DNA of 64,000 nucleotides, taken from NCBI GenBank assembly GCA_023473585.1, contig JAMCYU010000004.1, positions 1,682 through 65,681 on the forward strand. Reading direction: 5' to 3'. This document shows, one piece after another, positions 9,061 to 60,382 of the stretch. The position numbers and the translations under genes are program-made. Origin of the DNA: Patescibacteria group bacterium. GTDB lineage: Bacteria > Patescibacteriota > Microgenomatia > JAMCYU01. Under the pieces are notes generated by a model. That model had not been told where the DNA came from. It did no database searches and saw nothing but the letters and a program-made list of their open reading frames with translations. Positions within the stretch are counted from its first letter, which is position 1. Every line of letters begins with the position of its first letter.

Positions 9061-9873
9061 ATGGCCGACGAACCGACTACCGAACTGGAAATTAATCTTT
9101 TGGAACCAAATCCTCTTCAGGCGCGCGCTGTTTTTACGCAAGAATCTTTGGAAGAATTAAGCAGTTCGATTAAAGAGCACGGCGTTTTGGAACCCATAAT
9201 CGTGGCTAAAACCCCAGCCGGTTATCAGATTATTGCCGGTGAAAGACGCTGGCGGGCCTCGAAATTAGCCGGTTTAAAAAAAGTCCCCGTGGTTATTAAA
9301 GAAACGACCAGCAAAGGGATGCTCGAGATGGCTTTGGTTGAAAACGTGCAACGAGAAGACTTAAATCCGATTGACCGAGGTCAAGCCTTTCAAAGGTTAA
9401 TTGATGAATTCGGCTTGCCGGTTTCGGAAGTCGCCAAGAGAATCGGGAAGAGCGAATCCTATGTTTCCAACACGATGAGACTTCTGAATTTGCCCGACGC
9501 GATTAAGGATGGTTTAATTTCCGGAGCAACGACCGAAGGACACGCGCGAGCGATCTCCGGTTTGGGCGAGACGAAATTAATGGTTGAGGCTTACAAGATT
9601 TTATTGTCGGAAAACGCTTCGGTTCGAAGAGCCGAAGAATTGGCTCGAAAAATGAAGGCCCAAAATTCTCAAGGTCCACGGGGAGTGACGGCCAAGATTT
9701 ACAGCGATGAATTAGAAAAAATGGAACAGGACATTACCGCCAAAATTGACGGAAAAACCAAAGTGAAAATTACGCAATCAAGCACCAGTGCCCGGTTGGT
9801 TATTGTGATCACCGAAAACAGAGTTAAAACAACGGAGCTTCTTCGGGATATTCACCGGAAATTAACTTCTTAA
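9061..9873 (+). CDS. parB: ParB/Spo0J-family partition protein
   Basis: ParB box IIAGERRWRASKLAGL and an HTH region. Confidence 0.8.
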   Translation: MADEPTTELEINLLEPNPLQARAVFTQESLEELSSSIKEHGVLEPIIVAKTPAGYQIIAGERRWRASKLAGLKKVPVVIKETTSKGMLEMALVENVQREDLNPIDRGQAFQRLIDEFGLPVSEVAKRIGKSESYVSNTMRLLNLPDAIKDGLISGATTEGHARAISGLGETKLMVEAYKILLSENASVRRAEELARKMKAQNSQGPRGVTAKIYSDELEKMEQDITAKIDGKTKVKITQSSTSARLVIVITENRVKTTELLRDIHRKLTS

Positions 9874-10555: not shown

Positions 10556-10747
10556 CTAATTTATTTTCTTGTCTCCGGATGGATCTTACGGCCATTTTGC
10601 TTTTGAACAAAAACTGTTTCTTTTAAAGGCTTGCTGGGCGGCTTTACTCCCGGCCTTTTTTCATGATTAGACATTTTTTCCTTTCCGGACAGAATTAGAT
10701 GATTGTAGTCCATTATGATTAATAGTCAAGGGGAATTTTTTAATTTT

Positions 10748-10773
10748 GATACCATGATTTAAATCATAGTATC
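10748..10773. repeat. 26-bp palindrome copy 1 (gataccatgatttaaatcatagtatc)
   Basis: Near-perfect inverted repeat centred on TTTAAA, upstream of a candidate promoter and the ORF at 10866. Confidence 0.7.
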
Positions 10774-10789
10774 AGGAGAAGGAATATTT

Positions 10790-11333: not shown

Positions 11334-11422
11334 ATTCGGTTTATAAAAACCTTCCCAACTAAATTTTAAAGCCACTCTTCTTCGAAATTCTTATACTTAC
11401 AGAATGTTTTTCCTCCACCTTT

Positions 11423-11448
11423 GATATCATGATTTAAATCATAGTATC
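11423..11448. repeat. 26-bp palindrome copy 2 (gatatcatgatttaaatcatagtatc)
   Basis: 24/26 identical to copy 3. Lies immediately upstream (8 nt) of the ORF at 11456. Confidence 0.7.
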
Positions 11449-11455
11449 GGGAGAG

Positions 11456-11884: not shown

Positions 11885-11910
11885 ATTATCTCATTAATTC
11901 ACCTTGTTTT

Positions 11911-11936
11911 GATACCATGATTTAAATCATGGTATC
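11911..11936. repeat. 26-bp perfect palindrome copy 3 (gataccatgatttaaatcatggtatc)
   Basis: Perfect dyad symmetry, 27 nt after the stop of the ORF at 11456..11884. Confidence 0.75.
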
Positions 11937-12108
11937 AGGAATCTTCCTTGGGATTCTCCGGATCAAAATCCACAAGGCCGAAGCCTGAGCCCTTTTTAGT
12001 TAGTTTATACTTTATGGTTCTTGACACCCTATAGAAAATTATGTTAATGTTGGTCTTGTGAAAAACTATTGGGAAAAAATTAGTATTTCACGAAAAAACA
12101 AATTAAAG

Positions 12109-19190: not shown

Positions 19191-19380
19191 GCCCAATTGG
19201 AGCTCCTTTTATCAAAAAGCTCGAACTTATTTTACCAAAAATCTGTAACAAATCATAGCGCGTCGGCGGCTGCGGCGAGGAAAAGGGATTTAAGGGGAAA
19301 GGGAATCGCCGCAGCCGCCTCCGCTTTTCGCTCAGCCGCCATTCGGCGGGGCTCTCTTCCCGCAAAATTTTTCGCACCAT
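19191..19380. repeat. GC-rich structured repeat R1 (about 190 bp, + orientation)
   Basis: Contains a 13-bp-stem hairpin GGCGGCTGCGGCG...CGCCGCAGCCGCC and the hairpin gccgcc-attc-ggcggg. The reverse complement recurs at 24485..24670 and a partial copy at 21249..21343. Confidence 0.8.
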
Positions 19381-19418
19381 TAGAAAATTAAAAACAGGAG
19401 AAGAAAAAAACTATGAAT

Positions 19419-20810
19419 TCAATTATCCTTTATTCGTGGTAAAACTCGCATTAGATCAACCACGTTATCATAATCAGCCAAAGTTAGTAAATTTTCAAAA
19501 TTTTTAATTCCTTCACTTTCTATTCCCATTTCTTGACAAAGTCTTTTTAGAATTTCTTTCATTCTTTTTTCATCGGGATGGACCCTCTTAACCATTTCCT
19601 TAAAAAGATTACGAACTGTTGTCTTTTGGCCTTCATTGGCTGGTTTGGGAAAATTGAAATAAGCTAAGGGAATATCATGGTCTTCCCCTAAGATTTTTTG
19701 AGTAAGATTAACAAATTCTTGATACTCATCATTATAGTCTCTGGCTGGTATGTTAATTGAAGGCTTTTCTTTACCCCATTTTTTCTCCGCCGCTTTTCTA
19801 ATTTTCAAATTCCGAAGGGCTCTTATGATTGGCAAGGAAAATGGACAGACCTTTTCGCAATGACCGCAAAAAAGACAAGAAGCTGGCTTAACCGGTGTTT
19901 TATTATAGACCTCCATCAGCCAATCTTTTGGCCCAAATTTTTCAAAATATCCCTCAAGCCGCAAAAATAAAGTAATGTTGATTCTCGCCGGACAACCGCC
20001 GTCGCGAGTAATACAATAACCGCACGCCCGACAGAAAGGAAGACCGATTTTTTTCACCTCTTTTTTTAATTTCTCCTTATCTTCTTTAGTAAAATTCGGA
20101 TTTTTCAAAACTTCAACCACATCTTCGTTAAGTTCTCTTTCATTTAAAATTCCCGGAATAACAGTGGAAATAGTGGGGTTGATCAAACAAAACCGTATGG
20201 CGGCAGCCGCATTTTTAAAAGTTCCTCCAGCCAAAGGCTTCATCACAATAACGCCAATGTTTTCTTTTTGGCAAAATGGCAAAAGAACTTTGGTTGCCTC
20301 TTGCTCTTTGAAATTAAAATTGACCATTAAAACATCAAAAAGCCCGGTTTTAGCCACTAAAAGAAGGGTTTCAAGATTGTGTCCAGAAACACCGATAAAT
20401 TTAATTTTCCCTTCTTTTTGAGCTTCTTTTAAAGCTTTTAAGGCTCCATTTTGTGAAAGAACCAAATCCAGCATCTTTTTATCTTTAAGATGGTGAATCA
20501 TGTAAAGCTCAATAAAGTCGGTTTGAAGGTTTTTAAGACTTTGGGTGATTTCCTCTTTCATTTCCTTGAAAGTAAGCACCGGACTTTTAGAAGCAATAAT
20601 CCACTCCGAGCGGCAAGATTTAATTATTTTACCGACTTTTAGCTCGGAGTCGGTCCAGGCCCTGGCAGTATCAATAAAGTTTATTCCACATTGGTGAGCT
20701 TTATTAATAATATCAGCCGCCTCTTTAAAGGAAACTCTCTGGATAGGAATTGCCCCAAAACCGATCTCGGAAACTCTTAAATTGGTTCTGCCTAAAATTC
20801 TAAATTTCAC
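19419..20810 (-). CDS. aldo/keto reductase-family oxidoreductase with C-terminal 4Fe-4S (ferredoxin-like) domain
   Basis: AKR N-terminus (GFGAIPIQR...) and C-terminal CRACGYC...CLFCGHCEKVCP cysteine clusters. Confidence 0.7.
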   Translation of the reverse strand: MKFRILGRTNLRVSEIGFGAIPIQRVSFKEAADIINKAHQCGINFIDTARAWTDSELKVGKIIKSCRSEWIIASKSPVLTFKEMKEEITQSLKNLQTDFIELYMIHHLKDKKMLDLVLSQNGALKALKEAQKEGKIKFIGVSGHNLETLLLVAKTGLFDVLMVNFNFKEQEATKVLLPFCQKENIGVIVMKPLAGGTFKNAAAAIRFCLINPTISTVIPGILNERELNEDVVEVLKNPNFTKEDKEKLKKEVKKIGLPFCRACGYCITRDGGCPARINITLFLRLEGYFEKFGPKDWLMEVYNKTPVKPASCLFCGHCEKVCPFSLPIIRALRNLKIRKAAEKKWGKEKPSINIPARDYNDEYQEFVNLTQKILGEDHDIPLAYFNFPKPANEGQKTTVRNLFKEMVKRVHPDEKRMKEILKRLCQEMGIESEGIKNFENLLTLADYDNVVDLMRVLPRIKDN

Positions 20811-21208
20811 TTTTTTGTTAAAGAGATAACACTACTTATTAAATCAGAAATCTTATCGGTTTTTTGGGCCATTTTTTCTAACTGGCATTGGTTTCCCTTT
20901 TTGTTGTCGTAAATTTTCTCGACAATTTTTTCTGCATATAAAGGAATTTTTCGTTCTTGGCAGAAAACGAGAGCTAAACTACTTGCTAAGAGACTAAAGA
21001 TTTCCTTAACTCCGGAAAAAACAGCAATTTTTGCCGCGGCCAAACCGATTGTTTTATCATAAATAGTTGCCTGTTTAAGAAAACCTTTTTTAGAAGCAAT
21101 GACTAAATCCAAAATCCCTTGATGATTTGATCGAAAAACTACGCTCCGACCGCTTTTAATAATAAGAGTATATTTTCCTTCTTTAATTTGTTGTAAATAT
21201 GTAGTCAT
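20807..21208 (-). CDS. hypothetical protein (133 aa), translationally coupled to the oxidoreductase
   Basis: 4-nt ATGA overlap with the downstream gene. No confident domain. Confidence 0.4.
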   Translation of the reverse strand: MTTYLQQIKEGKYTLIIKSGRSVVFRSNHQGILDLVIASKKGFLKQATIYDKTIGLAAAKIAVFSGVKEIFSLLASSLALVFCQERKIPLYAEKIVEKIYDNKKGNQCQLEKMAQKTDKISDLISSVISLTKK

Positions 21209-21248
21209 ATTCTAAATATAGCATATTATATTGATTTTTTATAGTTTG

Positions 21249-21343
21249 CGAAAATTTTGCAGGAAGCGCAGCCGCCTCCACATTTGCTCGCCCCGCCATT
21301 CGGCGGGGCTCGCTTCCCGCAAAATTTTTCGCGCCAGAAATAA
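21249..21343. repeat. partial internal copy R2 of the GC-rich repeat (self-complementary hairpin)
   Basis: cgaaaattttgcaggaagcg...gccccgcc-attc-ggcggggc...cgcttcccgcaaaatttttcg. About 85% identical to the 3' part of R1, in the same orientation. Confidence 0.7.
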
Positions 21344-21485
21344 AAAATAAGAAGGGAAGACACGCTTGGCTCAAGTCACCCATCCGCGCGTGTCAAAAAT
21401 GTAGTCCCTAAAAAGCAGGGGTATTTTGTTAAGAACCCATTGACATTCCATAAAAATTTCTCTACTCTAAAGATAGAGAAAATTT

Positions 21486-22343
21486 ATGAAAAAACATCTT
21501 CCCCAAAGCCATCAGGCTATAAGTAGTAAATTAAAATATCTACTTCCTGCACTCATTTTTTCTCTTGTTTTCTTCGGCACTGTAACTGCTGTCCAGAACC
21601 AAAACTCTACCCGCGTATTAGGAGAACAGACTGAACAGAAAGGAAATCAAGAAAACAAAGAAGGCACTGAGCCAAAAGAGCAAGTTGAACAGGCTGAGCC
21701 AACAGAAGCACCGGAGCCCACCGAAACTCCCGAGCAAGAACAGGAACATGAACAAGAAGCAGAAAAAATCCATCAGGAAGTGCAAAAGGAAATACAAAAT
21801 AATAATGTGGATAAAGTTGAACTTCATCCAACTTCAGAAAAACCTGGGGAAGGAACGTTAAAGATTGAAAAAGTAAATGGTTCCTCAACCGAAAAAACAG
21901 TCCCTTCTTCAGTCGCATCTCTTATTAGCATTCAAAATAGTCAGGCCGGAAGTGTTTCTATTAGTGTCAGCAAAAATGGTACAGTCACATTGGTTAATGG
22001 AGGTATTACAGTCCAGACGAATTACCCCGTTGTTATTGATCCTCAAACTCAAACAATTGCAATTAAAACAACAAACGGCGTGACTGTTATCAACTCACTT
22101 CCTTCGCAGGCACTAAACGGTGTCCAACCTATCGATAAGCCAACTACCATACAATCAGCGGTACTCGGGACACAAAATGGGCAAGCCTATTATGATGTAA
22201 AAGGAGTGCAACAGAGAAGGTTTGTTGGCTTGGTGCCAATTAAGGCAAACGTTGAAACAAAGATTGATGCGCAAAACGGATCAACAATATCTGTCAACAA
22301 ACCGTGGTATTTAAATATCTTTGGCTTTCTTTACTCCATATAG
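21486..22343 (+). CDS. secreted/membrane-anchored protein with E/P/T/Q-rich low-complexity linker
   Basis: N-terminal hydrophobic segment, an acidic EQ/EP-repeat linker and a T/V/N-rich beta-rich C-terminus. Confidence 0.5.
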   Translation: MKKHLPQSHQAISSKLKYLLPALIFSLVFFGTVTAVQNQNSTRVLGEQTEQKGNQENKEGTEPKEQVEQAEPTEAPEPTETPEQEQEHEQEAEKIHQEVQKEIQNNNVDKVELHPTSEKPGEGTLKIEKVNGSSTEKTVPSSVASLISIQNSQAGSVSISVSKNGTVTLVNGGITVQTNYPVVIDPQTQTIAIKTTNGVTVINSLPSQALNGVQPIDKPTTIQSAVLGTQNGQAYYDVKGVQQRRFVGLVPIKANVETKIDAQNGSTISVNKPWYLNIFGFLYSI

Positions 22344-22399
22344 CCAAAACTGTAATTCCCCATTTTCTTCCCATATTTCTTCCACTATAATACCTCTGT

Positions 22400-23083
22400 A
22401 TGCAGATTCTGATTGTGGAAGACGAGGAAAAAATCGCCAATTCCTTACGACGGGGGCTCTTGGAAGAACGCTATACTGTTGATCTGGCCCGCGACGGCGA
22501 AGAAGCGCTTTACAAACTTGACATCAACGAGTATGACCTGGTTATTTTGGATTTAATGATCCCCAAAGTGGACGGTATTACAGTTTGTCGCCAAATTCGC
22601 CAGACCAACTCTCATCTTCCCATTCTTATATTAACAGCTAAAGATGGGACCGAAGACAAAATTACGGGGCTTGACGCGGGCGCCGATGATTATATCACTA
22701 AACCTTTTTCTTTCTCGGAACTTTCGGCAAGGATAAGGGCTCTTTTCAGAAGGGGTCGCAAAGCGGATCCCACGATTCTTGTTTTTGATGATTTATCGCT
22801 TGACCCGGCCACGAAAACCGCCAAACGTAAAAATAAAGTAATTACCCTAACCGCAAAAGAGTATGCGCTTCTGGAATACTTTATGCGCTATCCAAACAAG
22901 GTTTTAACCAAGACAGAGCTATTGGAGCATATCTGGGATTATAATTATGACGGACTTTCCAACATGGTGGAAACGTATGTTAAATATTTGCGAAAAAAAA
23001 TAAAAGTGGACGGGCAAAGCCGTGAACTTATCCATACCATGCGGGGCTCAGGTTATATCTTAAAGAAAGACGATCATGTTTAA
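22400..23083 (+). CDS. OmpR/PhoB-family response regulator
   Basis: Receiver DEEK...D...ILDLMIP...K and a winged-helix output domain (LTAKEYALLEYF). Confidence 0.85.
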   Translation: MQILIVEDEEKIANSLRRGLLEERYTVDLARDGEEALYKLDINEYDLVILDLMIPKVDGITVCRQIRQTNSHLPILILTAKDGTEDKITGLDAGADDYITKPFSFSELSARIRALFRRGRKADPTILVFDDLSLDPATKTAKRKNKVITLTAKEYALLEYFMRYPNKVLTKTELLEHIWDYNYDGLSNMVETYVKYLRKKIKVDGQSRELIHTMRGSGYILKKDDHV

Positions 23084-23993
23084 AAAAGCGCGTATACAAC
23101 TGATATTTTTTTATTCTCTTGTTTTTCTCTTCTTCTTCTGGCTATCTAATACAACTTTATATTTATTGGTGGGTCAATCCTTAGGAGGCGACCCATCCTT
23201 AATAGTGTTTTGGGATACTTTATTTCTATTAAATATTGTCTTCATTTTTTTAGTACCCTTTATTGCCTGGTTTTTCACTTTGTTAACTCTTAAACCGGTA
23301 CAGAAAATTCATGAGCAGCAAAAACAGTTTATATCTGATGTGTCCCATGAATTAAGAACTCCTCTTTCCATATTAAGTAGCGAAATAGACGTAGCTTTGA
23401 AAAAAAATCGCCGGACAACATTTTACAAACAGATTCTGACCAGCAATAAACAGGAAGTGGGCCGTTTGGCAGCTTTAGTCGAAAACCTGTTATTTCTTGC
23501 CAGAGAAGATGAGGGGCAACAAACTGTAAAGTTTGAAAGAGTAGACATTACTGATCTTCTGGGAAATGTCACTGCTTCACTGAAGGACAAAAGCGTTAAA
23601 AAGAAAATCTCTATACATTTTGAAGCGGCAGAGGAGGCGGTGGTAGTTTCGGGACAACCAACAATGCTAAGACAACTTTTTCTCAATATTATTGACAATG
23701 CCATCAACTACACACCAATAAACGGCGCTGTGTGGGTTAGTTTGAGAAGCCAAAAGCAATATGCGCAAATAAAGATAAAAGATACAGGGATTGGTATATC
23801 AGAAGGGGATCAGAAAAAGATCTTTGAACGTTTTTATAGAGTAGATTCTTCCCGTTCTCAAGTAAGCGGTTACGGACTCGGCCTTCCTATCTGCCAATCT
23901 ATTGTTCGGCTTCATCAAGGAAGTATTATGGTTCACTCTCGTTTAGGAAAAGGGTCGGTATTTACCGTTCTACTTCCCAGAGCTTCCCGCTAA
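23076..23993 (+). CDS. sensor histidine kinase (2 TM, HisKA + HATPase_c)
   Basis: H-box VSHELRTPL, N-box IIDNAINYT, and G-boxes DTGIGI and GYGLGL. Confidence 0.8.
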   Translation: MFKKARIQLIFFYSLVFLFFFWLSNTTLYLLVGQSLGGDPSLIVFWDTLFLLNIVFIFLVPFIAWFFTLLTLKPVQKIHEQQKQFISDVSHELRTPLSILSSEIDVALKKNRRTTFYKQILTSNKQEVGRLAALVENLLFLAREDEGQQTVKFERVDITDLLGNVTASLKDKSVKKKISIHFEAAEEAVVVSGQPTMLRQLFLNIIDNAINYTPINGAVWVSLRSQKQYAQIKIKDTGIGISEGDQKKIFERFYRVDSSRSQVSGYGLGLPICQSIVRLHQGSIMVHSRLGKGSVFTVLLPRASR

Positions 23994-24081
23994 ATACCAG
24001 GTTTCTTCCACAGTCTTCCCATATCTCATTTTATATACTGACGTTGTTATTTATTTTTAATAAGAAAGGGGGTGAAAATAT

Positions 24082-24387
24082 ATGAACATCAAAAAAACAG
24101 TACCACTTGCTGCTTTGGCGTTGGTGCTTTTGGGTGGCGGTGCTTTTGGGATAAGTAGGGTGAAAGCAGCTCCTGTCCACGCTCAAACTCCAACTATCCA
24201 GTCTCAAAGTGCAACGCAGCAAACAGCTGATAAAGAAACCAACGATGGTGCAACTGAAGTAAAAGAGGCACGAGAAGGAGTTGAAAGTGTTGAACCCGCC
24301 AACGAACAGGCGCAGGAGAAAAACCTGCCAGGCGGCGGACACCAGGATCAAGGTCAGGCAGACCACCAGTTTGAAGGCGTTGAGTAA
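24082..24387 (+). CDS. small secreted protein (101 aa, signal peptide, Q/E-rich)
   Basis: Signal peptide MNIKKTVPLAALALVLLGGGAFG and a strong SD aagggggtg. Confidence 0.5.
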   Translation: MNIKKTVPLAALALVLLGGGAFGISRVKAAPVHAQTPTIQSQSATQQTADKETNDGATEVKEAREGVESVEPANEQAQEKNLPGGGHQDQGQADHQFEGVE

Positions 24388-24413
24388 TCTAGCTAGGAAC
24401 TGGGTGTGAAAGG

Positions 24414-24446
24414 AACGGAGGCATAACGCCTCCGTTTTCTTTTTAA
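24414..24446 (+). terminator. rho-independent terminator
   Basis: aacggaggc-ataac-gcctccgtt followed by a T-run. Confidence 0.6.
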
Positions 24447-24484
24447 AAACTTTTATTTTCTTTTTTCCTTCCTAATATCTAAAC

Positions 24485-24670
24485 GGCGCGAAAAATTTTG
24501 CGGGAAGCGAGCCCCGCCGAATGGCGGGGCGAGCAAATGAGGTGGCGGCTACGGCGATTCCTTTTCCCCTTAAACCCCTTTTCCTCGCCGCAGCCGCCGA
24601 CGCGCTATGATTTGTTACAGATTTTTGGTAAAATAAGTTCGAGCTTTTTGATAAAAGGAGCTCCAATTGG
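24485..24670. repeat. GC-rich structured repeat R1' (inverted copy of 19191..19380)
   Basis: About 90% identical to the reverse complement of R1. Ends in ggagctccaattggg. Confidence 0.8.
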
Positions 24671-24752
24671 GAAATCGCGGCGCTCGCTTTGCGAGCGCCC
24701 ATTCGTTTAACGCCTCAAATCGGACTTTTTTATCACAGAATTGCCAGTTCGT
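24660..24752. repeat. about 90-bp inverted repeat B (left arm) flanking the recombinase
   Basis: gctccaattgggaaatcgcggcgctcgctttgcgagcgcc... is the reverse complement of 26422..26513 (about 90% identity). Contains the hairpin GGCGCTCGC-ttt-GCGAGCGCC. Confidence 0.75.
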
Positions 24753-25036
24753 TTGTGCGAAGCACAAAATCAAACTTCGTTTGACATCCAATTTTTTGCC
24801 TTTCGTCAAAGACGAAAATTCCAGATTTTCAGAAAGAAAGCGCCAATTTACTCAGCCTTTGGCGGAGCTGCCCAAAAGCGAAAAGAATTTTTGCGATGCT
24901 ATTGAAAAAGTTTTGTAAAACTTGTTATACTAATGCTGGTTTCAGCATTAAAGGTCGTCCTTTTTAGTAGCCGTCTCGGACAATTCAGGGCGACTTGAGT
25001 TGAGACCACCGGGGCGGCTATTTAAGTTTTACAAAC

Positions 25037-26612
25037 ATGACTAACAACTTTCCGCAAAAATTCTTTCTCTATGCCCGCAAATCTACAGATGAAGCGGACA
25101 GGCAAGTTTTATCAATTGAAGCGCAACTAACTGAAGTCAGAGAGTATGCTCAAAAAGAAAATCTGTTGATTGTTCGTGAGTTTATTGAGACAAAATCAGC
25201 CAAACAACCAGGCAGAGAAATTTTTGAGAAAATGTTAGCGGGCATAGAGAACGGTGAGGCAAATGGAATTTTAGCGTGGCATCCGGATAGAGTCGCCAGA
25301 AATGCGGTTGACGCTGGAAAAATTATTCACCTTCTCGATAGAGGATTTTTAGCCACGCTAAAATTCCCCACTTTCTGGTTTGACAAAACTCCTCAAGGAC
25401 TTTTTATGCTCTCAATCGCTTTTGGGCAGAGCAAATATTACATCGATAATCTTTCGGAAAATATCAAGCGGGGCATACGCCAAAAACTACGAAAAGGAAT
25501 TTATCCAGGGGTGTGCACCACTTGGTTATGTTAACGAATTGAAAAATCACACCATTCTTAAAGACCCGGAAACTTGGCAAAAAGTCAGAAAACTTTTTCT
25601 GGCGTGTGCCGTAGGTAAATATACGCTTGATCATTTGCAAAAATTGGCGCTTTCTTTTGGCTTGGTGAGCCCAAGATCGAAAAGAAAATTATCAAACGCT
25701 ACTTTACAGCGATTGCTCCAAAACCCCTTTTACTATGGCTGTTTTCAATACAAAGGTGAGCTTTACGAAGGAGTCCATGAGCCAATAATTTCCCAGCAAC
25801 TTTTTGAAAAGGTGCAGCGGGTAATGAGTGATCGCGGAAAACCAAAGAAAGAAAATCAGGATTACAACTTTATTTACACTGGAATTTTTAAGTGTGGCGA
25901 ATGTGGTCGAGCTATCACCGCTGAACAGCATACTAAAAAATCTGGTTTGGTTTTCCGCTATTACCGTTGCACCAAAAAGGACACTGATTGTCAACAAAAG
26001 TTTCTCAACGAGAATGATTTATTTGCTCAACTCAACGATATTTTTCAAAAAGTTGCTTTACCAGACGGCTGGTTGAAACCAATCTTAAATAAACTTGACC
26101 AAGAGGAAAAAGAAATCAGCCAGTCGTCAAAATCTTTCGCCCAAAATCTCCAAAGAGAAATCGGTGAAATTGAAGTCAAGCTCTCCAAAGTCCTTGATAT
26201 GCAACTAGATGGTTCAATTTCTCTTGAGGAATACAAAAAGAAAAAGGAAGAACTTATAAACCGAAAAACCGGACTGAAACAAAAATTAGCTGATTTTGAG
26301 CGAAAGGGAAATTATTGGCTCGAACCGATGAGGAATTTCATTTTAGCCGCTCACCAAGCCAATTTATTAATAAATTCTGAAAATTTGGAAGAGAAGCGTA
26401 GCTTCCTGCAAAAAATTGGCTCGAACTGGCAACTCTGCGATAAAAAAGTCAGATTTGAGGCGTTAAACGAATGGGCGCTCGCAAAGCGAGCGCCGCGATT
26501 TCCCAATTGGAGCGGGATAGCGGAATCGAACCGCCTTCTCTACCTTGGGAAGGTAGCATACTACCGGTGTACTAATCCCGCACTAAAAAATCTAAACGAT
26601 TTTTCAGTGTAA
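25037..26612 (+). CDS. large serine recombinase (resolvase catalytic domain + recombinase domain + zinc ribbon + coiled coil), interrupted by a +1 frameshift
   Basis: Catalytic domain YARKSTDEADRQVLSIEAQ with the Ser nucleophile. After the break the frame continues ...PG/CAPLGYVNE, with zinc ribbon CGECGRAIT...YYRCTKKD. Frames 25037..25534 and 25380..26612 join at the G4 run 25508-25511. The ORF's 3' end reads through repeat B' and antisense tRNA-Gly. Confidence 0.75.
26422..26513. repeat. inverted repeat B' (right arm), immediately 3' of tRNA-Gly
   Basis: Reverse complement of 24660..24752. Confidence 0.75.
26508..26581 (-). tRNA. tRNA-Gly (anticodon CCC), CCA encoded
   Basis: Reverse complement: acceptor GCGGGAT/ATCCCGC, anticodon stem CTACC/GGTAG with loop TTCCCAA, T-loop TTCGATT, 3' TCCA. 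Confidence 0.75.
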
Positions 26613-34508: not shown

Positions 34509-34517
34509 TTATCGGTT

Positions 34518-34537
34518 TGATACTATGATTTAAATCA
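34518..34537. repeat. partial copy of the 26-bp palindrome (tgatactatgatttaaatca) overlapping the gatB start
   Basis: 19/20 match to the left arm plus centre of the 10748/11423/11911 palindrome. Confidence 0.5.
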
Positions 34538-35887
34538 ATGAATCAAACAAAGCTAAAAGTAAACAAAAAAACAAAATATCTGCCGATTATAGGTTTGGAG
34601 ATTCATGTGGAGTTGAAAACCAAGTCCAAGATGTTTTGTGGCTGTTCGGCCGATTATTTTGGTCATGAACCCAACAGCCAGTGTTGTCCGATTTGTTTGG
34701 GTTTGCCGGGAGCCTTACCTTTTCCTAACAAAAAAGCGATTAGAGACTGTTTAGTAATCGGCCTGGCCTTAGATTGTCAGGTTGTCGAGACTTCGCAATT
34801 TGACCGGAAAAACTATTTTTATCCGGATTTAGCCAAGGGTTTTCAGATTTCCCAATACGCAAACCCCTTTTGTCTTAACGGAAAATTGGGAGAAATTCGG
34901 ATTCGTCGGGTCCACATGGAAGAAGACACCGGCAAGCTTTTACACGCCCAAGAAGGGACACTGATTGATTTTAATAGAAGCGGCGTGCCTTTGGTGGAGA
35001 TTGTGACCGAGCCCGATCTTCATACCGCTTCGGAGGCTAAAATTTTCCTGCAAAAACTTCAGCAAATCATCCGTTACTTAGGCGTTTCTGATGCGGATAT
35101 GGAAAAGGGGAGTATGCGTTTGGAACCGAATATTTCCTTAATAAAGACCAATACTACCAATAAATACCAATTACCAAGTTATAAAGTCGAGGTTAAAAAT
35201 ATCAATTCTTTTAAGTTTGTCGAAAAGGCCATTAATTTTGAAATTGAAAGACAACAGGCATTATTGGAAAAAGGCGAGGTTATTCATCAGGAAACCAGAA
35301 GATTTGACGCCGATAAAGGTTTAACGCTCCCCCAGCGGAGTAAAGAGGAGGCTAAAGATTATCGCTATTTTCCGGAACCGGATATTCCGCCCATCAAATG
35401 GACAAAAGAAGAAATTAACAATCTTAAAAATAAAATCCCGGAATTACCGGAAACCAAACTTAAGCGCTTTATAAAAGAGTACGGGCTTTCGGAGTATGAC
35501 GCCACGATTTTGACGGTTTCCCTAGCGGTTGCCGATTATTTTGAAGAAAGTATTAAGTATTTAGTATCAAGTATTGAGTCTAAAGAGATAACGCCAAAAA
35601 TCATTGCCAATTGGCTTATTAATAAAAAAGTTGATATTGATAAAAACTCACCAGAAGATTTAGTAGAAATGATTGCTCAAAAAAGTCAACAAGCAACAAT
35701 TTCTGACGAAGAACTGGAAAAAGCGACGCTAAAAGTTTTGCTTGACAATCCAAAGGCGGTCAGCGATTATAAAGCGGGTAAAGAGCAGGCCTTAATGTTT
35801 TTGGTCGGTCAGGTTTTAAAAATGGTTAAAGGTCAGGCCAGCGGGGAAGAGATTAAAACATTAATAAAAGAGGAGCTTATAAAATGA
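34538..35887 (+). CDS. gatB: Asp/Glu-tRNA amidotransferase subunit B
   Basis: IGLEIHVELKTKSKMFCGC N-terminus and C-terminal YqeY-like domain. Confidence 0.9.
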   Translation: MNQTKLKVNKKTKYLPIIGLEIHVELKTKSKMFCGCSADYFGHEPNSQCCPICLGLPGALPFPNKKAIRDCLVIGLALDCQVVETSQFDRKNYFYPDLAKGFQISQYANPFCLNGKLGEIRIRRVHMEEDTGKLLHAQEGTLIDFNRSGVPLVEIVTEPDLHTASEAKIFLQKLQQIIRYLGVSDADMEKGSMRLEPNISLIKTNTTNKYQLPSYKVEVKNINSFKFVEKAINFEIERQQALLEKGEVIHQETRRFDADKGLTLPQRSKEEAKDYRYFPEPDIPPIKWTKEEINNLKNKIPELPETKLKRFIKEYGLSEYDATILTVSLAVADYFEESIKYLVSSIESKEITPKIIANWLINKKVDIDKNSPEDLVEMIAQKSQQATISDEELEKATLKVLLDNPKAVSDYKAGKEQALMFLVGQVLKMVKGQASGEEIKTLIKEELIK

Positions 35888-59784: not shown

Positions 59785-60094
59785 TGTTCAAAGAAGTGAA
59801 AGTTAGGGCTACCGCGAGAATTTAGAACCTCTATTCAAAAAGGAGTTTCATCACTGACGATGCTTGTTTGCCCTTAGGGCCAGCATTTGACGTTTTATCT
59901 CCAACCTTTTTTTCGTTTTATGTGAGTGGGATTTATGTCGAGCTCCCACTTTGGTATCTTTTCTTGCCATAAACCTCATTATACAACAAAATTTAGATAA
60001 AAGTACATAGTTTGTTGGTAGATTACCAGGGATTTTGGTATAATAAATAACAGTTATACTTTAGAGGAAAGGAGGTTATAGGGCGGTTTGTAGG

Positions 60095-60260
60095 AATACA
60101 AGCGTGGGGCCCCGAGCGGAGCCAAGTCTGACTTGGCGGTGTCGAGGGGAGACGAGGAGGAGGCCATAGGCCAAAGACCTGTGGGATCGGACTTAATTTA
60201 GGCAAAACCTAAATTAAAGTATCTGCGGAAACCTCCAGGTTGGATTAGCAACCTTAAGAA
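60095..60260 (+). ncRNA. candidate glmS ribozyme (GlcN6P-sensing) in the glmS leader
   Basis: GC-rich structured leader containing AGCG...GACGAGGAGGAGG...CTGCGGAAACCTCCAGGTTGG. These resemble the glmS ribozyme core segments (GACGAGGA and GGCGGAUGCCUCCCGG). It lies 120 nt upstream of glmS. Confidence 0.45.
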
Positions 60261-60382
60261 TTTTTTAAAAAACCTTATCGCAAGATAAGAAACAAAGAGA
60301 AATTTAACTAATAACCGCTAAATAAACTTCAATCTTTTATTTTTATTAATTCAATAATTTTCTTCTCTTAAAGGAGGTTTTT

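Follow-up and report, generated by a model that had tools for sequence, protein, structure and literature searches.

Serine integrases are the main tools for the insertion of large DNA, and the rules of their targeting rest on a handful of phage enzymes. Large serine recombinases (LSRs) also serve small cargo elements such as Tn4451 and Tn5397 (with TnpX and TndX), which form a circular intermediate and enter loosely specific targets, with no tRNA mimicry. Genomic islands at tRNA genes and tycheposon-like elements mostly use tyrosine integrases, and IntP of phage Mx8, an integrase with the attachment (att) site inside its own gene, is a tyrosine recombinase, too. The layout of two unique segments separated by inverted repeats is that of the two-micron plasmid and of plastids; FLP is a tyrosine recombinase on a replicating plasmid, and Hin and Gin, which act on invertible segments, are small serine invertases that use 26-bp sites together with an enhancer. 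In the absence of a directionality factor, recombination by LSRs is restricted to attP with attB (Rutherford et al. 2013, PMC3783163). According to the same study, the motif for the zinc-ribbon domain of the Listeria (LI) integrase lies at 16–24 in attP and at 11–19 in attB, a shift of 5 bp toward the crossover. Mageeney et al. (2020) stated that tRNA genes were not a known target of serine integrases, found just 14 of 297 candidates and called for experimental proof. Here we describe a locus in which an LSR gene, a tRNA gene and long inverted repeats lie together. It is part of a 64-kb window, that is, the whole stretch of 64,000 nt analysed here (positions 1,682 to 65,681 of contig JAMCYU010000004.1, assembly GCA_023473585.1, Patescibacteria group bacterium), to which all coordinates refer. 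We consider it very probable that segment 19192–26513 is an integrative element of ~7.3 kb, which was mobilised by the LSR and inserted at the 3' end of a tRNA-Gly(ccc) gene, and that the repeats are its att arms.

The locus contains two pairs of inverted repeats. In the first pair, R1 (19192–~19410) and R1' (24453–24671) are 92% identical. An inverted-repeat search resolved them into a block of 137 nt with 96% identity (19192–19328 versus 24535–24671) and a block of 75 nt with 80% identity (19336–19410 versus 24453–24527), and the copies differ by substitutions as well as indels. A first-pass annotation of the same DNA had put their identity at about 90%, in agreement with a global alignment of the repeats as delimited there (176/192 = 91.7%). 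The second pair, Y' and Y (24660–24751 and 26422–26513), measures 92 nt with 97% identity. Its right copy, Y, is the 3' end of the LSR gene, and Y' directly adjoins R1'. Furthermore, a 12-nt core, CCCAATTGGAGC, occurs at three sites: at 19192–19203 on the plus strand, as the reverse complement at 24660–24671 on the minus strand and at 26502–26513. Six of its 12 bases are those of the tRNA 3' tip GCTCCA. The gene for this tRNA-Gly(ccc), the presumed integration target (26508–26581, minus strand), abuts the recombinase gene and has its 3' tip inside the core. The second pair, the core and the tRNA gene had all escaped the first-pass annotation.

Three types of junctions can be distinguished by what precedes and follows the core at each site. 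At 19192, the core stands between host sequence and R1. At 24671, in reverse complement, it joins the recombinase 3' end to R1, and at 26502 it joins this 3' end to the tRNA. Therefore, the left junction (host–core–R1) is attL-like, and its core holds the displaced tRNA 3' tip GCTCCA in reverse complement. The right junction (Y–core–tRNA) is attR-like. The third one (Y–core–R1) is an intact attP-like site, which lies inverted inside the segment, between the cargo and the recombinase promoter, and consists of Y', the core and R1'. Thus, attL- and attR-like junctions which share a short core and recombine attP and attB arms are present. Y' without the core (24672–24751, minus strand) is an inverted copy of the last ~27 recombinase codons; its reading frame gives …ALNEWALAKRAPRFPNWSSFYQKARTYFTKNL followed by a stop codon, and it includes a GGCGCTCGC-AAA-GCGAGCGCC hairpin. 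At the right junction, Y plus core (26422–26513, plus strand) form a P-side arm within the recombinase 3' end, with the hairpin at 26474–26494.

We compared the window with 166 related loci (numbered L001 onward), six of which were found by exact protein look-up, 80 in species-representative genomes and 80 in metagenomes. Among these relatives, the shared core is only ~4–8 nt long and always is the 3' tip of the local tRNA. The crossover lies within the last bases of the tRNA acceptor stem plus the discriminator. The displaced CCA of the tRNA marks the start of the host flank at the left junction in several relatives. The palindrome CCAATTGG was considered as a symmetric crossover centre and was rejected: the relatives lack the palindrome, and the T-arm motif described below would sit 5–6 bp too far out when compared with published positions. 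A separate observation concerns the GC-rich hairpin in the last recombinase codons (26474–26494 and 24679–24699), ~30 nt from the core. Its stem varies (GGCGCTCGC-AAA- in the window, GGCGCTGC-TRAC- in L003 and L004), and a perfect hairpin of at least 6 bp was found in 62 of 140 loci, compared with 9 of 140 control windows. As it lies just downstream of the tRNA when read on that strand, the element may bring it in as a replacement terminator.

The T-arm motif NCGAAC occurs both in the tRNA and in the R arm. We measured its distance from the divergence point, i.e. the position where the internal site and the tRNA junction cease to be identical. This distance is +10 to +12 for the tRNA and +15 to +17 for the R arm, and the offset between them (R arm minus tRNA) is exactly +5 bp in 40 out of 40 loci with a tRNA at the junction. 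For the window, the distances are 12 (tRNA) and 17 (R1). Since this offset matches the published attP/attB shift of the zinc-ribbon motif, the first ~30 nt of R1 are a P' half-site, which mimics the tRNA T-arm at attP-type spacing. A zinc-ribbon motif 5 bp nearer to the crossover in attB than in attP was thus found, and only on the P'/B' side. The half-site belongs to the proximal part of R1 (19204–19250, plus strand), which has GCTCGAAC at +17 from the divergence point and, in the attP configuration, supplies the last 15 recombinase codons and the stop codon (SSFYQKARTYFTKNL plus stop). The first-pass annotation had suggested, among other possibilities, that the repeats are recombination sites of the adjacent serine recombinase. 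This was essentially right, as the core-proximal ~30 nt of R1 behave as a P' half-site. The limits it set for the unit were wrong: the element, which sits at the 3' end of tRNA-Gly, spans 19192–26513 with the recombinase gene inside, and R1', which had been taken for an element end, is one half of the intact internal attP-like site.

The family of this recombinase comprises more than 7,500 matches at E < 1e-30, mostly from Patescibacteria, or candidate phyla radiation (CPR) bacteria, which is the group given wherever a match is named. The proteins typically have ~490 aa, so the members of this family end at the core. An inverted copy of the recombinase 3' end, corresponding to Y', was found in 140 of the 166 related loci. 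It is 41–211 nt long (median 92), lies a median of 95 nt upstream of the gene and has a median identity of 99.1%, with 100% in 65 loci. In 104 of the 166 loci a minus-strand tRNA gene abuts the recombinase gene, most frequently for Gln (30), Ser (30), Gly (17) or Asn (14), and in a few cases for Ala, Pro, Glu, Arg, Lys, Trp or Asp. Of the loci of the first set, 36 extend for 400 nt or more upstream of the inner copy, and 27 of these have the outer arm pair as well: an arm of 100–306 nt abuts the inverted recombinase end and is repeated, inverted, 0.7–9 kb further outward, mostly with 94–100% identity. About 35 contigs begin within 260 nt of the point of the inverted copy, as expected because a repeat longer than the assembler k-mer would cause such breaks. 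The architecture is also carried by a genome deposited as complete (L057, CP174360.1). The window thus shows the standard layout of a large family. Repeat identity is related to the state of the recombinase, with a median of 96% in six loci with a disrupted gene versus 99.2% in 134 with an intact one (p = 0.013). The 97% of the window fits the lower identity seen with a disrupted recombinase; a renewal of the repeats that depends on activity would be consistent with this, and so would age alone. With regard to the hosts, several species-representative bins (L024, L025, L029, L031, L038, L041, L043, L044, L048, L054 and others) are labelled Gammaproteobacteria, Omnitrophota, Planctomycetia, Nitrospirales or Desulfobacterales. 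Either these are mis-binned CPR contigs or the host range is wider than CPR.

The cargo differs even between elements whose recombinases are 87–91% identical: there are genes for phosphoenolpyruvate (PEP)-utilising enzymes in L003, a 395-aa open reading frame (ORF) in L094 (recombinase 91% identical) and an aldo/keto reductase (AKR)/two-component set in the window. Other relatives carry GmrSD, a type I restriction-modification system, a reverse transcriptase, an AbiEii-like ATPase, a Schlafen/AlbA protein or a multicopper oxidase. The cargo often consists of defence genes. A second core gene, present in 58 relatives (e.g. L035 ~9238–9445, L046 ~1420–1624), encodes an XRE-type helix-turn-helix (HTH) protein of 65–87 aa (HTH_3). 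In most cases this gene opens the cargo operon and is transcribed away from the recombinase gene, with the inner arm between them. Its product could be a regulator or a directionality factor.

The C-terminal tails of the recombinases are informative, too. Within single clusters of 90% identity, the tail comes from the R arm in some members and from the tRNA in others (P0021 versus P0144; P0121 versus P0134 and P0127; P0161 versus P0149–151), which means that the same recombinase is found at different junctions. In the P0003 cluster, the tails are written by two different tRNAs. Tandem arrays occur as well. In L028, L069 and L085 the outer arm is directly abutted by the end of a recombinase fragment, the recombinase gene of L082 runs into the arm of another element type, and what stands as the "host" flank of attL in L028 and L068 is the end of a decayed recombinase gene. 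From these junctions it appears that new copies insert between the resident recombinase gene and the tRNA gene, and hence that the host-side half of the target is weakly specified. A decayed recombinase module was also seen in L134 (9690–11560), between two tRNA-Gln genes (ctg upstream, ttg downstream) with their 3' ends facing it and with no R arm. This module could have arisen by recombination between the internal attP and a second tRNA, or it could consist of two remnants; there is no similarity between its two arms.

Apart from the half-site, the arms contain several structured parts. The ~60% GC which had been ascribed to the repeats holds for the distal 125 nt (61%) but not for the whole repeat (52%) or its proximal 47 nt (28%); the window has 40%. 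Both hairpins that had been proposed are real. The long one, H1 (19265–19319, plus strand), has a GC stem of 14 bp (19265–19278 with 19306–19319), a loop with a purine-rich mirror repeat (AGGAAAAGGGATTTAAGGGGAAAGGGAA) and a twin in R1' (24544–24598). The stem of the second one is 5 bp long in R1 but 8 bp long in the other two copies, R1' and R2. In the direction from core to distal end, the distal part of R1 (19336–19410, plus strand) consists of this small hairpin, CCGCC-ATTC-GGCGG, followed by a terminator-like stem and AAAATTTTTC. When read from the core outward, all arm copies end in such a weak terminator-like stem and AAAATTTTTC, and R1' without the core (24453–24659, minus strand) is an inverted copy of the whole arm, with P' half-site, H1, 8-bp hairpin and terminator-like end. 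R2 (21249–21355, plus strand) is, as annotated before, a partial copy which forms a long imperfect hairpin (fold z = -4.5). It is 96% identical to R1' over 69 nt and 83% to R1 over 63 nt, is made up of 21 nt of inverted arm end joined to ~90 nt of direct distal arm, and has neither the core, P' half-site and H1 nor the core-proximal half of the arm. Beyond R1, R1' and R2, no repeat copies were found in the 64-kb window. In the attP configuration, the recombinase frame crosses the core for 15 codons (…PRFPNWS-SFYQKARTYFTKNL and stop), and tails of the R-arm type have been called on public contigs (proteins P0121, P0021 and P0027). The small ORFs over the repeats were rejected as genes, as they are explained by this frame, and the other frames are of low complexity. 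We infer that the arm beyond the half-site is the natural 3' end of the recombinase gene as it exists before integration (stop codon, 3' region and terminator), combined with an accessory structured site.

The recombinase gene of the window (25037–26612, plus strand) encodes the domain set of an LSR, with Resolvase (PF00239, 1.8e-22), Recombinase (PF07508, 1.4e-11) and zinc-ribbon (PF13408, 5.5e-9) domains, and its 3' end reads through the core into the antisense strand of the tRNA. The motif YARKST of the catalytic region is invariant in the recombinase alignment. The ORF is split by a +1 frameshift, caused by an extra G in a CCAGGGGTGT run at ~25505–25510, where relatives read YPGCAPLGY. An identical contig of a metagenome-assembled genome (MAG) has the same frameshift and may come from the same data. 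The gene therefore is probably a pseudogene, with a sequencing error common to both records as the alternative. R1 and R1' have diverged in their distal parts, where identity is down to 80%. An XRE-type HTH gene was not seen among the annotated genes between the arms, where no direct search for HTH was made. Because of the frameshift, the diverging repeats and this HTH gene not being seen among the annotated genes, the copy in the window is probably inactive and decaying.

The anatomy of the junctions, the geometry of the half-site, the architecture common to the family, the changing cargo and the occurrence of the same recombinase at different junctions are observations, while excision, the circular form, the enzyme responsible for flipping and the roles of H1 and of the internal attP are inferred. 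In this reading, R1 is the element-side (P') arm of the attL-like left junction, Y together with the tRNA forms the attR-like right junction, and R1' plus Y' form a complete inverted attP-like site between cargo and recombinase gene. Excision by attL x attR would yield a circle in which two inverted attP sites separate a cargo segment from a recombinase segment, and either attP of this circle could be used for integration into a tRNA 3' end. By analogy with the tandem arrays of the relatives, R2 may be a deletion scar of an older, lost inner recombinase module, once flanked by two inverted arms in a two-element array. If so, 19.4–21.2 kb and 21.4–24.4 kb would be two successive cargo loads. 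Going beyond this, it is possible, although we do not regard it as likely, that the elements form an undescribed class in CPR bacteria for which the second inverted attP is essential. Such elements would have a two-segment circle, need no directionality factor, integrate by either site, flip their modules and stack or swap cargo at tRNA genes. They would use H1 as an accessory site and could even form a double-stranded att site when single-stranded DNA, taken up by these naturally competent cells, folds back on itself.

Several points weigh against an integrative element of this kind. No recombination directionality factor was identified; together with the rule that only attP and attB are recombined, this leaves neither excision nor a recombinase-catalysed inversion explained. 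A clear zinc-ribbon motif was not found in the P-side (Y) and host-side (X) half-sites. The 12-nt core of the window with its CCAATTGG palindrome is lineage-specific and probably not meaningful. The near-identity of the internal attP to the outer copies could equally come from homologous recombination of the host or from recent transposition. With its frameshifted recombinase, the window copy may never move again. Finally, neither an empty site nor an excised circle nor an alternative orientation could be recovered for this genome from public contigs, which break at R1, R2 and R1'.

The first-pass annotation had also considered an invertible segment. Relatives indeed show both orientations of the recombinase module as well as of the cargo, which supports this idea at the level of the family only. 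In L044 and L081, a plus-strand tRNA gene abuts Y' upstream of the recombinase gene, i.e. the module is flipped; the position of the tRNA gene suggests the same arrangement in L034, L051, L163 and possibly L048. The recombinase 3' end of L044 runs into an R-type arm, and L063, a close relative of the flipped L081, has the usual arrangement. For homologous cargo in opposite orientations there were too few loci with common cargo, and the position of the HTH gene was used instead: it lies beside the inner arm in 49 loci and at the far cargo end, on the other strand, in 5. Each module thus is flipped in roughly one case in ten (~9:1). One may therefore ask if the 5.3-kb R1–R1' segment, and the Y'–Y recombinase module with it, is a regulated switch which is flipped by the recombinase, with integration being secondary. 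All three sites share the core, and because of the inverted copy any pairwise exchange among them regenerates the same three site types, so that Y' makes the products the same in kind as the substrates. The tandem arrays suggest, in addition, that Y–core–tRNA can serve as an attB-like target. However, a ratio of ~9:1 is not a mixture of orientations, and the published LSR rules forbid attP x attL or attP x attR without extra factors. Isomers of the recombinase module could simply result from the use of the other attP at integration, without any inversion. Flips of the cargo do need an inversion between the arms, for which either the recombinase or homologous recombination could be responsible, and arms of 100–300 bp with ~100% identity can also be flipped by RecA. 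We therefore regard a regulated switch as rather unlikely. A small serine invertase of the Hin/Gin/Cin type, which would have ~190 aa and a C-terminal HTH, is not seen here: the enzyme is an LSR of ~490 aa, the repeats measure 92–300 nt and both orientations exist only between genomes.

A family of structured non-coding RNAs (ncRNAs), which the first-pass annotation had named too, or of cis-regulatory RNAs, with R1, R1' and R2 as copies that lie beside the recombinase gene only incidentally, would account for the conservation of H1. Among examples picked by the loop alone, H1 has a consensus stem of 10 bp in which 9 of 10 pairs show compensatory double changes (18 distinct examples), and stem and loop are conserved across distant lineages. 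In the closest relative, L094 (1370–1710), the loop carries two extra nested GC hairpins (~38 and ~24 nt), as often seen in structured RNAs, with the stem and the G-tract segments of the loop kept, and the terminator-like arm end would fit an RNA gene, too. However, the loop motif, a purine mirror repeat of the form GGA1-4 G3-7 N1-7 G3-7 A1-4 GG, occurs 38 times in 1.07 Mb (related loci plus window), and all matches that could be placed are in R-type att arms, with none seen elsewhere. Relative to the core, H1 is found with its G-rich or its C-rich orientation in roughly equal numbers. An Rfam search over 18.8–27.5 kb gave no match on R1, R1' or R2, neither at the gathering threshold nor at E <= 5. 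Recombinase binding accounts for the first 30 nt of the arm, R2 has no H1, and a hairpin or cruciform at the DNA level fits the covariation equally well. Thus, the proposal is partly right for one part of the arm, H1, whose conserved and covarying hairpin is confined to the arms, in either orientation and with no Rfam family, and an ncRNA gene is an improbable explanation of the repeats; H1 itself may act at the RNA or at the DNA level. Terminal inverted repeats of a transposase-type transposon, or of an element resembling a miniature inverted-repeat transposable element, which would have brought the cargo, are very improbable; the first-pass annotation had suggested a transposon-like element. 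Inverted repeats of ~200 nt do flank a gene block whose content depends on the genome, but there is no transposase in or near the segment and no direct target-site duplication, as the flanking 12-mers are inverted and part of the repeat. Moreover, no dispersed copies were found in the window or in 1 Mb of related sequence, and the outer ends follow the attL/attP logic with the tRNA, as does the attR-like end. That the inverted duplication is a chimeric fold-back from assembly or amplification is hardly conceivable. Metagenome assemblies can produce inverted chimeras, and the window and the identical MAG contig may share reads; against this, the same architecture is found in 140 loci from many studies and assemblers, including the complete L057, and the repeat copies of the window differ by substitutions and indels.

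The integrative element encloses two blocks of cargo. Block 1 (19419–21208, minus strand) encodes an aldo/keto reductase with a 4Fe-4S domain (19419–20810) and a DUF1893/TM1506 protein (20807–21208). Block 2 (21486–24387, plus strand) encodes a secreted protein of 285 aa, an OmpR-type response regulator (22400–23083), a histidine kinase (23076–23993) and a small secreted protein (24082–24387), the gene of which is followed by a canonical terminator (24412–24438). Promoter and leader of the recombinase gene (24752–25036, plus strand) contain TTGAAA-18-TATACT at 24902–24931. This non-coding stretch is unusually conserved (87% identity to L003, 81% to L004), had no Rfam match, and its GC-rich leader may be structured.

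Exact-protein look-ups of the flanking and cargo genes returned only contigs of SRR10267473 (Logan) and the one identical MAG contig. The latter (GCA_023380895.1) is 100% identical over the layout from R1' to the tRNA and may derive from the same reads. The SRR10267473 contigs end at the 5' end of tRNA-Gly (window position 26586, L001) and at R1, R2 and R1' (19192, 21300 and 24500; L090, L092). The repeats thus fragment short-read assemblies, and cargo may be missing from some bins. A degenerate pattern of the Gly-type P' arm had no match in the metagenome collection of the Joint Genome Institute (JGI), a result which is uninformative as the JGI locus L006 contains the pattern. In IMG/VR, one distant relative only was found, which gives no support for a viral or plasmid form. 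Elsewhere in the window, a palindromic motif of 35 nt, TTTGATACCATGATTTAAATCATAGTATCAGGAGA, occurs in four copies (10745–10779, 11420–11454, 11908–11942 and 34516–34550) and looks like an operator just before the ribosome-binding site. A glmS ribozyme/riboswitch is located at 60090–60314 (Rfam RF00234, 67 bits), and there are five tRNA genes besides tRNA-Gly(ccc).

For this genome, the practical message is that the repeats mark a decaying copy of an element and that the genes between them are horizontally acquired cargo. For LSRs in general, a family which copies the T-arm of the tRNA into its own arm at an offset of +5 bp amounts to an independent natural test of the structural model, with 11 tRNA types. 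The internal inverted attP and the element-specific hairpin, which to our knowledge are not features of any characterised system, point to an unstudied step of control or transfer. Genome-reduced CPR bacteria apparently acquire defence and metabolic genes through these elements. In the literature searched, we found almost no described mobile elements of CPR bacteria, and a full-text search of a partial library, which is no proof of novelty, gave no description of this family.

How, then, does it compare with known systems? With tRNA-gene genomic islands and tycheposon-like elements, the elements described here share integration at the tRNA 3' end, restoration of the tRNA from the element and displacement of the old tip to the far junction. 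Tandem accretion at one tRNA, small size and a variable cargo which often consists of defence genes are common to both, too. They differ by their serine recombinase, the junction repeat of only a few bases and the long internal inverted repeats. The predicted circle resembles the two-micron and plastid layout, with cargo and recombinase gene split by inverted repeats of ~300–400 bp which hold the recombinase site, and with both orientations found; unlike in the two-micron plasmid or with Hin and Gin, the circle and flipping by the recombinase are predictions here. Tn4451 and Tn5397 are likewise small cargo elements with an LSR; we know of no internal inverted att copy in them. In archaeal integrases of the SSV type, the attachment site also lies inside the integrase gene and integration rewrites its ORF (PMC7253208). 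These are tyrosine recombinases, however, and their gene is split in two, whereas in the CPR element only the C-terminal tail changes: the R arm supplies the last codons and the stop codon as long as the element is free, and the antisense strand of the tRNA does so after integration.

Closest are the large serine integrases of phages and of integrative and conjugative elements (A118/LI, phiC31, Bxb1, SPbeta). They have the same set of domains and a short crossover core, and the motif on the element side is 5 bp further out than on the host side, as published for LI integrase. Unlike these, the CPR element targets tRNA 3' ends, its attP overlaps the stop codon of the integrase gene, a second, inverted attP is constantly present and a directionality factor is not evident. 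Furthermore, the CPR elements are only 3–12 kb long, with no phage or conjugation genes seen. Because of the enzyme and the geometry of the half-site, we place the family among the integrative elements of LSRs. Among the members known to us, four features are peculiar to it: tRNA genes as the target, an attP that overlaps the stop codon of the integrase gene, an inverted attP constantly present inside and a hairpin seen only in its arms.

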